Counted from the stretch's first letter, positions 47,926-48,714 are shown. The stretch: 64,000 bases of DNA from an uncultured Streptococcus sp. (GCF_963521255.1 NZ_CAUQTU010000010.1:3866-67865); one strand, 5' to 3'. The notes: a model not told the origin generated them from the letters alone. Program-made: numbers and translations.

Positions 47926-48513
47926 ATGCGCTATGGCTATGTTCGTGTATCTACAAGAGAACAAAATATCGATAGACAATTTTCAGCCTTGGTAGAAAAC
48001 AAATTAGCAAAAGAAAATATTTTTATTGATTATGTTTCAGGAAAGGATTTTGACAGAATAGAATATCAAAAATTATTAACTACCTTGAAGGAGAATGATG
48101 AATTAGTTATTAAATCAATTGATAGATTGGGAAGAAACTATGATGAAATTTTAGAACAATGGCAAGCAATTACTAAGAAAAAGAAAGTAAATATAACTGT
48201 TTTAGATTTCCCCTTATTAAATACAAAGAATAGCGATGATAATATCACAGGAAAACTAATCTCCGATATCGTTTTACAAGTCCTATCTTATGTGGCACAG
48301 TTTGAAAGAGAACAAATCAAACAAAGACAAATGGAAGGAATACGGGAAGCACAGAAAAAAGGGAAAAAATTCGGTAGACCAAAATTGCTTGTTCCGAATA
48401 ATCTCCCTGATGTGATAGCTCAATATACGAAAAAAGAAATAACCTTACGAGAAGGTGCAGACATCTTAGGAGTATCAAAAAGCACCTTTCATAATTGGAT
48501 AAAAAATTCATAG
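47926..48513 (+). CDS. small serine recombinase (resolvase/invertase family)
   Basis: 195 aa. MRYGYVRVSTREQNIDRQ (catalytic Ser), an E-helix, and a C-terminal HTH LREGADILGVSKSTFHNWIKN. Confidence 0.9.
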   Translation: MRYGYVRVSTREQNIDRQFSALVENKLAKENIFIDYVSGKDFDRIEYQKLLTTLKENDELVIKSIDRLGRNYDEILEQWQAITKKKKVNITVLDFPLLNTKNSDDNITGKLISDIVLQVLSYVAQFEREQIKQRQMEGIREAQKKGKKFGRPKLLVPNNLPDVIAQYTKKEITLREGADILGVSKSTFHNWIKNS

Positions 48514-48549
48514 TTCCTGTCAAAAAACCTAGGATTTTTTGTACAGGAA
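48514..48549. repeat. hix-like imperfect palindrome P1
   Basis: ttcctgtcaaaaaaccTAggattttttgtacaggaa begins on the base after the recombinase stop codon. Its half-sites TGTCAAAAAACC and TGTACAAAAAATCC resemble the Hin/Gin half-site TTATCAAAAACC. Confidence 0.55.
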
Positions 48550-48639
48550 ATACACTTTATTTTAGAATCATTTTCGTTAGAAAAAAGGTTCTAAAATCCA
48601 GCATCTTGACCGATTATTATTACACTACCATTCTATCAA

Positions 48640-48673
48640 GTTTGTCCAAAAAAGTCTAGGTTTTTGGACAAAC
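48640..48673. repeat. hix-like imperfect palindrome P2 (inverted relative to P1)
   Basis: gtttgtccaaaaaagtcTAggtttttggacaaac. Its reverse complement aligns ungapped with P1 at 24 of 28 core positions (TGTCnAAAAACCTAGnnTTTTTTGnACA). Confidence 0.55.
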
Positions 48674-48714
48674 TGATTACTTTACAACAAATAAAAATAG
48701 GGAGTATTAAATGA

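Follow-up and report, generated by a model that had tools for sequence, protein, structure and literature searches.

The window analysed here, a 64,000-nucleotide stretch of DNA from an uncultured Streptococcus sp. (GCF_963521255.1 NZ_CAUQTU010000010.1:3866-67865, one strand, positions counted from its first letter), carries a small serine recombinase gene followed by two near-palindromes, P1 and P2, and then by a presumed operon for surface proteins. We consider it probable that the adjacent recombinase drives a promoter switch by DNA inversion, with P1 and P2 as its crossover sites, the window in the OFF orientation and the flipped form ON. An invertible switch had been suggested for this locus in an initial annotation, made from the sequence without database searches, and the suggestion is now supported: exactly the segment between P1 and P2 is inverted in five assemblies, with the predicted hybrid half-sites. 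Both orientations thus occur in nature, and the exchange that separates them is precise and central. The segment is most likely an on/off promoter switch, a kind of phase variation of which we found no description for mitis-group streptococci.

Natural inversions of the P1-P2 segment

A scan of one genome per species yielded 80 loci. In about 60 of them, from Streptococcus mitis, S. pseudopneumoniae and mitis-group species without a name, the recombinase shares 90-99% identity with that of the window, which therefore belongs to this group. Among the 66 loci in which both sites could be read, 61 have the orientation of the window and 5 are inverted (L003, L025, L026, L046, from strain DD26, and L049). 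The window orientation also holds for all of 27 additional metagenome loci and 14 loci from a single sub-lineage, which brings the overall tally for the S. mitis group to about 102 window-like against 5 inverted (about 107 loci, in samples that are not independent). The five inverted loci all come from isolate genome assemblies with an intact recombinase gene, and since they lie in four different upstream contexts, the inversion events were independent.

The invertible segment measures 123 base pairs (bp) between the cores of the two sites (48533-48655). Some contigs, L003 (GCA_050876365.1) among them, have the same flanks as the window and encode the identical 195-amino-acid recombinase. The order in L003 is TTCCTGTCAAAAAACC-TAG-ACTTTTTTGGACAAAC, the reverse-complemented spacer, and TTCCTGTACAAAAAATCC-TAG-GTTTTAGGACAAAC, which is the product expected of an exchange between P1 and P2 at their centres. 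The same rearrangement is found in 5/5 inverted loci, the outer half-sites being constant and the inner ones swapped and reverse-complemented. When turned back, the inverted segments are 94-100% identical to some window-like relative: that of L003 is 100% identical to the segment of the window, those of L025 and L026 to that of L028 (100%), and that of L046 to that of L037 (100%).

In all five cases the crossover is bounded to the central CTAG. The longest run common to the arms of P1 and P2 has 11 nucleotides (nt) (TTTTTTGGACA) and lies away from the crossovers; exchanges that fall at CTAG and not within this run are the mark of site-specific and not of homologous recombination. Typical assembler k-mers exceed the identical runs of the arms, so the inverted orientation is probably no assembly artefact. 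Contig ends at the sites were also considered as a sign of mixed populations and discarded, since at least two cassette copies in S. pseudopneumoniae 163_SPSE account for the breaks there, and L225, which ends inside P1, is a single case and not evidence.

Structure of the crossover sites

The recombinase gene ends at 48513, P1 starts on the next base (48514-48549, ttcctgtcaaaaaacctaggattttttgtacaggaa) and P2 lies at 48640-48673 (gtttgtccaaaaaagtctaggtttttggacaaac); positions and sequences of these full palindromes are exactly as first quoted. The reverse complement of P2 matches P1 at 24 of 28 positions, and a repeat search returned the same arms (48518-48545 and 48643-48670, 28 nt, 86% complementary). 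Because direct alignment gives just 19/28 by our own count, the two sites are inverted relative to each other, as had been proposed. They are also the only ones of their kind: with up to 3 mismatches allowed, a pattern derived from P1 matches only P1 and P2 in the 64 kilobases (kb) (0.00 expected), and a P2-derived pattern finds the same two matches only (0.03 expected). A potential third site at 47612-47626 (AAAACCTAGTTTTTT) failed both patterns and was judged a chance resemblance; it encodes MKKLG, the first codons of an efeO-like lipoprotein gene on the minus strand.

Both sites are 28-bp TGTC...GACA elements with a 13-2-13 geometry. P1, the left site, reads TGTCAAAAAACCT-AG-GATTTTTTGTACA on the plus strand (48518-48545, core AG at 48531-48532), its longer 48514-48549 version being this 28-bp site extended at either end by 4 bp that continue the palindrome. 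P2, the right site, reads TGTCCAAAAAAGT-CT-AGGTTTTTGGACA on the plus strand (48643-48670, core CT at 48656-48657), and the two cores are 125 bp apart. The initial annotation had described palindromes with one short and one long half and a TA crossover centre. The asymmetry vanishes once the centre is shifted by one base, and AG/CT is the more likely core, judging from the left and right cores across clades: AG (left) and CT (right) stand at the 13-2-13 centre in S. infantis-type, Gemella-type and three further clades. With TA at the centre the half-sites would be unequal (12 and 14 bp), and TA does not occur in the right sites of Gemella, L129 and L130 (GTCTG). The natural recombinants do not separate TA from AG, as both fall within the shared CTAG. 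An asymmetric core is what gives hix sites their polarity; with such a core and inverted sites, exchange can only invert the segment and never delete it.

A Sin-like serine recombinase

The recombinase gene occupies 47926-48513 on the plus strand (stop codon TAG at 48511-48513) and was delimited by its open reading frame (ORF) and its Pfam domain; its 195-residue product matches PF00239 (Resolvase) over residues 3-148 (5.9e-29, 101.5 bits for a cutoff of 23.3). The catalytic serine (Ser9) lies in a YVRVST motif (MRYGYVRVSTREQ), a DRLGRN motif is also present (IDRLGRNY), and both line up with the equivalent residues of Sin and of gamma-delta resolvase. At the C-terminal end, the Pfam models HTH_17, HTH_23 and HTH_10 give weak, sub-threshold matches to residues 169-194, and the alignment with Sin reaches residue 185. 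Among solved structures Sin (2r0q, 1.3e-25) ranks first, ahead of the gamma-delta/Tn3 resolvases (about 1e-18) and then of Gin (4m6f and 3uj3, 1e-14 to 3e-14). The NCBIfam model for the Mpi master DNA invertase (NF009949) scores 58.4 bits for a cutoff of 272, which places the protein outside the Mpi family. Relatives on plasmids and phages are at most 56% identical, the nearest plasmid ones being annotated as recombinase or res genes.

By its sequence, then, the protein falls in the Sin/resolvase branch of the small serine recombinases, although it appears to work like an invertase, and is a member of neither the Hin/Gin nor the Mpi family. The Hin/Gin-type resemblance noticed at first does not extend to the protein, which is Sin/resolvase-like, but it does hold for how the sites work; the term hix-like therefore refers to the mode of site action and not to family membership.

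A candidate promoter within the segment

A consensus scan places a candidate promoter on the minus strand at 48630-48658, made up of a -35-like TAGACT (48658..48653), a 17-nt spacer and an extended -10 element TG-A-TAGAAT (48638..48630). The -35-like hexamer overlaps the core of P2 and persists after inversion. In the window this promoter faces the 3' end of the recombinase gene, and in the inverted L003 the same scan puts it on the plus, operon strand; a segment promoter that points away from the operon and, once inverted, toward it had been predicted, and the consensus matches in the two orientations agree with this. In flipped strains it stands about 150 nt ahead of the operon start codon. 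P2 is followed by only about 40 nt before the first cargo gene starts, and these hold no convincing promoter. We therefore infer that the window, whose promoter faces the recombinase gene, is OFF and that the flipped orientation is ON.

The extended -10 element TGATAGAAT is the reverse complement of 48630-48638 and lies exactly 4 nt inside P2. A TGnTAnAAT motif (TGATAGAAT, TGATAAAAT, TGGTAAAAT or TGGTATAAT) occurs at this same 4-nt offset from the right site in six clades whose spacers are otherwise unalignable. A comparison of 47 distinct S. mitis-group sequences shows a nearly invariant promoter-proximal half of the segment and a variable P1-proximal half. The conserved half also contains a second -10-like element on the minus strand, TGTAATAAT (48616-48624), which is not kept in S. 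infantis or Gemella. This is the TGtAATAAT first put forward as the promoter: it is indeed the reverse complement of 48616-48624, but the best-conserved promoter element is TGATAGAAT instead.

The variable half contains an internal palindrome, ATTTTAGAATCATTTT / AAAAAGGTTCTAAAAT (48559-48597), which folds as RNA at -12.9 kcal/mol (z = -5.5). It was rejected both as a terminator, as no U-tract follows it, and as a conserved accessory site, as it is not conserved in S. infantis and the palindrome of Gemella differs. The Gemella segments (e.g. L181, about 2110-2155) have arms of 12 bp, AGACAGACATTG ... CAATGTCTGTCT, abutting the left site. Candidate roles for such segment palindromes are those of a hairpin in the leader, a locus of DNA bending or an accessory site; no Rfam family was matched in the leader up to E = 1.

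Proposed mechanism and alternative explanations

In the mechanism that we propose, each 28-bp near-palindrome would bind one recombinase dimer, and exchange between P1 and P2 would flip the 123-bp segment. In the orientation of the window the promoter would fire toward the 3' end of the recombinase gene, leaving the operon for the choline-binding protein, the TM2 protein and the DUF6287 lipoprotein OFF; after inversion it would fire into the operon and turn it ON. The adjacent recombinase would be the catalyst, the conserved motif the promoter and the flipped orientation the ON state.

Several points weigh against this scheme. About 95% of the assemblies are in the orientation that we call OFF, and no inverted example was found among some 44 S. 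infantis and Gemella loci, so that switching may be rare, strongly biased or limited to certain lineages. A loop of 123 bp is short for a serine-recombinase synapse, and neither an accessory site nor a host factor was identified. The promoter and the ON/OFF assignment are drawn from consensus and conservation only, a paralogue elsewhere in the genome may do the flipping in place of the adjacent recombinase, and the first cargo gene of the window is itself a frameshifted pseudogene.

Among other explanations, it is conceivable, although unlikely, that the segment inverts but that the output differs or is reversed, the operon being read through from the recombinase promoter in the window orientation and the invertible promoter mainly producing antisense RNA to the recombinase gene or disturbing this read-through; the window orientation would then not be OFF in a simple sense. 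This would fit with the conserved promoter being aimed at the recombinase gene in about 95% of assemblies and in every clade, and with the lack of a strong terminator between the recombinase gene and the operon. However, a promoter opposing the read-through transcript would still reduce operon expression in the window orientation, the flipped strains place the same promoter correctly, at about 150 nt before the start codon, and the consistent surface-protein cargo matches classical ON/OFF phase variation.

The two possibilities that the initial annotation had left beside the switch both fare worse, because recombination between P1 and P2 is observed and the hairpins lack a proper U-tract. If P1 and P2 were merely terminators or RNA hairpins, the inverted strains would have to stem from rare RecA-dependent recombination in which the recombinase takes no part. 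RNA hairpins are indeed predicted for both palindromes (-13 and -18 kcal/mol, with z-scores of -2.8 and -4.2), and P2 is the sole palindrome that the scan lists as terminator-like, but P1 is without a U-tract and neither hairpin is followed by a proper one. Moreover, the longest identity between the arms, 11 nt, is too short for efficient homologous recombination, 5/5 exchanges fall in the 4-bp centre outside that run, and the 13-2-13 geometry and the AG/CT cores are kept despite differing flanks, whereas a terminator would need neither. We regard this explanation as very improbable. Slightly less credible still is a reading of P1 and P2 as subsites of a res/six-type site from a former plasmid or transposon, in which the resolvase would act between two copies of the whole site; of all the explanations we give it the least weight. 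The protein is certainly most like Sin and other resolvases, its closest relatives on plasmids bear recombinase or res annotations, and the sites begin with TGTC, which we take to be a feature of resolvase sites. Yet recombination between P1 and P2 themselves has been seen five times, the sites lie downstream and not upstream of the recombinase gene, and no further copy of a site exists in the 64 kb. The locus is chromosomal, the ORFs inspected around it (window 44000-54000) include no plasmid or transposase gene, and across genera the architecture is tied to surface-protein genes.

Beyond the promoter switch itself, one might speculate that the system forms a portable, multi-copy network of cassettes that flip one another's promoters, with a self-biasing switch, and that it belongs to a family widespread in Firmicutes that works on loops of about 70-210 bp without Fis. 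We put this forward tentatively and hold it to be doubtful. As the recombinases and the sites are nearly identical in genomes with several cassettes, the cassettes could act on each other's promoters, and antisense transcription into the recombinase gene in the OFF state would explain why about 95% of genomes are OFF.

Comparison with known systems

A close parallel in operation is the Hin/hix system of Salmonella (with Gin/Cin/Pin of phages Mu, P1 and e14), which likewise combines a small serine recombinase with two short inverted near-palindromes and an asymmetric 2-bp core and has, as is proposed here, an invertible promoter for downstream surface-structure genes. The outer half of P1, TGTCAAAAAACC, resembles what we take to be the hix half-site. 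The differences are nevertheless substantial: here the segment does not include the recombinase gene, each site has 28 bp (13-2-13, core AG) and not 26 bp (core AA), the segment measures 123 bp and not about 1 kb, and the recombinase resembles Sin (1.3e-25) and gamma-delta resolvase more than it does Gin (about 1e-14). To our knowledge Firmicutes have no Fis, so a Fis/enhancer invertasome is not expected.

In terms of the protein, Sin/resH (staphylococcal plasmids, Tn552 Bin) and beta/six (pSM19035) from Gram-positive hosts are the relatives to consider, Sin (2r0q) being the closest among solved structures. These systems serve plasmid or transposon resolution, with a multi-subsite res upstream of the gene and two res copies, whereas here two single sites downstream of a chromosomal gene recombine together and no accessory subsite was identified. 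The beta recombinase is known to carry out both inversion and resolution with the HU-like Hbsu (works cited in PMC8493755). In their geometry (28 bp, 13-2-13, TGTC ends) P1 and P2 are like site I of Tn3/gamma-delta res, which has 28 bp arranged as 13-2-13, an outer TGTC and a central 2-bp staggered cut. The AT core of that site is palindromic, and it depends on the accessory sites II and III, in contrast to the asymmetric cores and the two isolated sites seen here. Finally, in the Mpi invertons of Bacteroides fragilis a serine recombinase flips short promoter segments (roughly 170-230 bp) for surface structures, as is proposed here, and there can be several such switches per genome; Mpi acts in trans on many loci, whereas each cassette described here has its own recombinase abutting the switch.

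Promoter inversion is a familiar means of phase variation in enterobacteria and Bacteroides. The programmed inversions that we know of in streptococci depend on tyrosine recombinases that shuffle type I restriction specificity genes. In the literature on streptococcal invertible promoters we found no description of the present switch, although it may figure as a bare entry in a large PhaseFinder survey; the matches concerned instead hsdS/CreX systems, general reviews and an unrelated msa inversion in Lactiplantibacillus. A study of pneumococcus D39 found no further serine or tyrosine recombinase genes there (PMC6620402).

Gemella and the commensal streptococci related to the pneumococcus (S. 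mitis, S. pseudopneumoniae and S. infantis) carry cassettes in which a Sin-like recombinase and the segment that it would flip, with its candidate promoter, precede surface-protein genes. If our interpretation is correct, clonal populations could vary adhesins or antigens on the oral and airway mucosa, and surface-protein inventories drawn from the genomes of these species would overstate expression. Should cassettes also flip one another, the mitis-group streptococci would have a combinatorially variable surface coat. A 123-bp inversion segment in a host that lacks Fis would also offer a compact system for the study of serine invertase control outside the Hin/Gin paradigm.

The presumed surface-protein operon and the cassette

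The genes downstream of P2 are those first annotated: a choline-binding surface protein with a signal peptide (48715-49628, assigned from its ORFs and choline-binding repeats), a TM2-domain membrane protein that starts 33 nt after it (49662-50126) and a lipoprotein, now identified as DUF6287, the last gene of the presumed operon (50131-51183), all on the plus strand. A 1-bp deletion between 49307 and 49308 splits the choline-binding protein gene into 48715-49308 (197 amino acids) and 49278-49628 (116 amino acids); at window 49300-49310 the relatives have GGTATAAAC and the window GGTAAAAC. The intact gene (304 amino acids) is present in L002, L006, L009, L003 and L026, and several metagenome contigs share the deletion. 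As the deletion lies outside any homopolymer, this is a plain pseudogene and not a case of slipped-strand phase variation.

In all cases the gene next to the switch, on its downstream side, encodes a signal-peptide protein that is secreted or displayed at the surface, whether choline-binding, LPXTG-anchored or a lipoprotein. In the mitis group the cargo consists of choline-binding proteins with differing N-terminal domains, or of a lipoprotein, and in S. infantis and Gemella of LPXTG-anchored proteins. The DUF6287 lipoprotein and the TM2 protein often come next, the DUF6287 lipoprotein also in S. infantis loci. The cassette is found in at least seven upstream contexts, and two cassettes occur in one isolate (S. 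pseudopneumoniae 163_SPSE; L038, L044 and L085) and in one metagenome-assembled genome (CAUTXU01; L024 and L029). The copies within one genome have unrelated upstream flanks, and their recombinase genes are identical at 575/585 and 585/585 bases. The contigs of L038 and L044 end at the same point within the invertible segment, probably because the cassette is repeated.

Some cassettes are possibly decayed or locked. A lineage comprising L065 and L212-L224 has a 1-bp deletion in the outer half of P1 (TGTCAAAAAAC-TAG) and fragmented cargo genes (ORFs of 77 and 33 amino acids), and all its members have the window orientation. In addition, L117 has GAC for GGA beside the core of P1, and the recombinase of L077 is truncated at 162 amino acids.

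Relatives beyond the mitis group

S. infantis, Gemella and even homologues with 52-62% identity retain the two-site layout, which begins at the stop codon of the recombinase gene and has AG as its left and CT as its right core. In the latter, a site pair of the form GTAGAC... / ...GTCT[AG] lies at the stop codon with 71-210 bp between the sites, and the hosts are Clostridia genomes (Lachnospiraceae and Oscillospiraceae) and unassigned metagenome contigs. The architecture thus appears to be part of a wide Firmicutes family. The homologues with 52-58% identity and a site pair are L084, L086, L088 and L092-L094, from Clostridia genomes, and L142, L144, L148, L150, L151, L168 and L180, from unassigned metagenome contigs; the pair of L148 has GTATAC. 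Some of these distant pairs are just 71-76 bp apart, a remarkably short inversion loop for a serine recombinase.

The S. parasanguinis-type recombinase (72% identical; L201-L210) forms a clade that is without the P1/P2 architecture. Downstream of it are several GTACA-centred repeats and an Xre-type helix-turn-helix gene, and the surroundings of the unit vary, with Nramp and LrgAB among several unrelated contexts. A related recombinase thus probably serves a different element here, one that is possibly mobile.

A further observation concerns the promoter of ybaB. This promoter (TAGACTTTTAACCCCAAAATTGATAAAAT, match at 51338-51366 within a promoter region at window 51320-51427) agrees at 22/29 positions with the switch promoter plus the inner half of P2 (TAGACTTTTTTGGACAAACTTGATAGAAT); the region is also present in L026 (3680-3787) and L040 (3544-3788). 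In many other strains the recombinase gene is preceded, at a distance of 213-320 bp, by a copy of the ybaB promoter together with the initial 22 nt of ybaB. These copies may bear on the spread of the cassette or on the origin of its promoter. The copy in L040 is longer and includes sequence as far back as the end of a DUF6287 gene, a sign that cassettes may lie in tandem.
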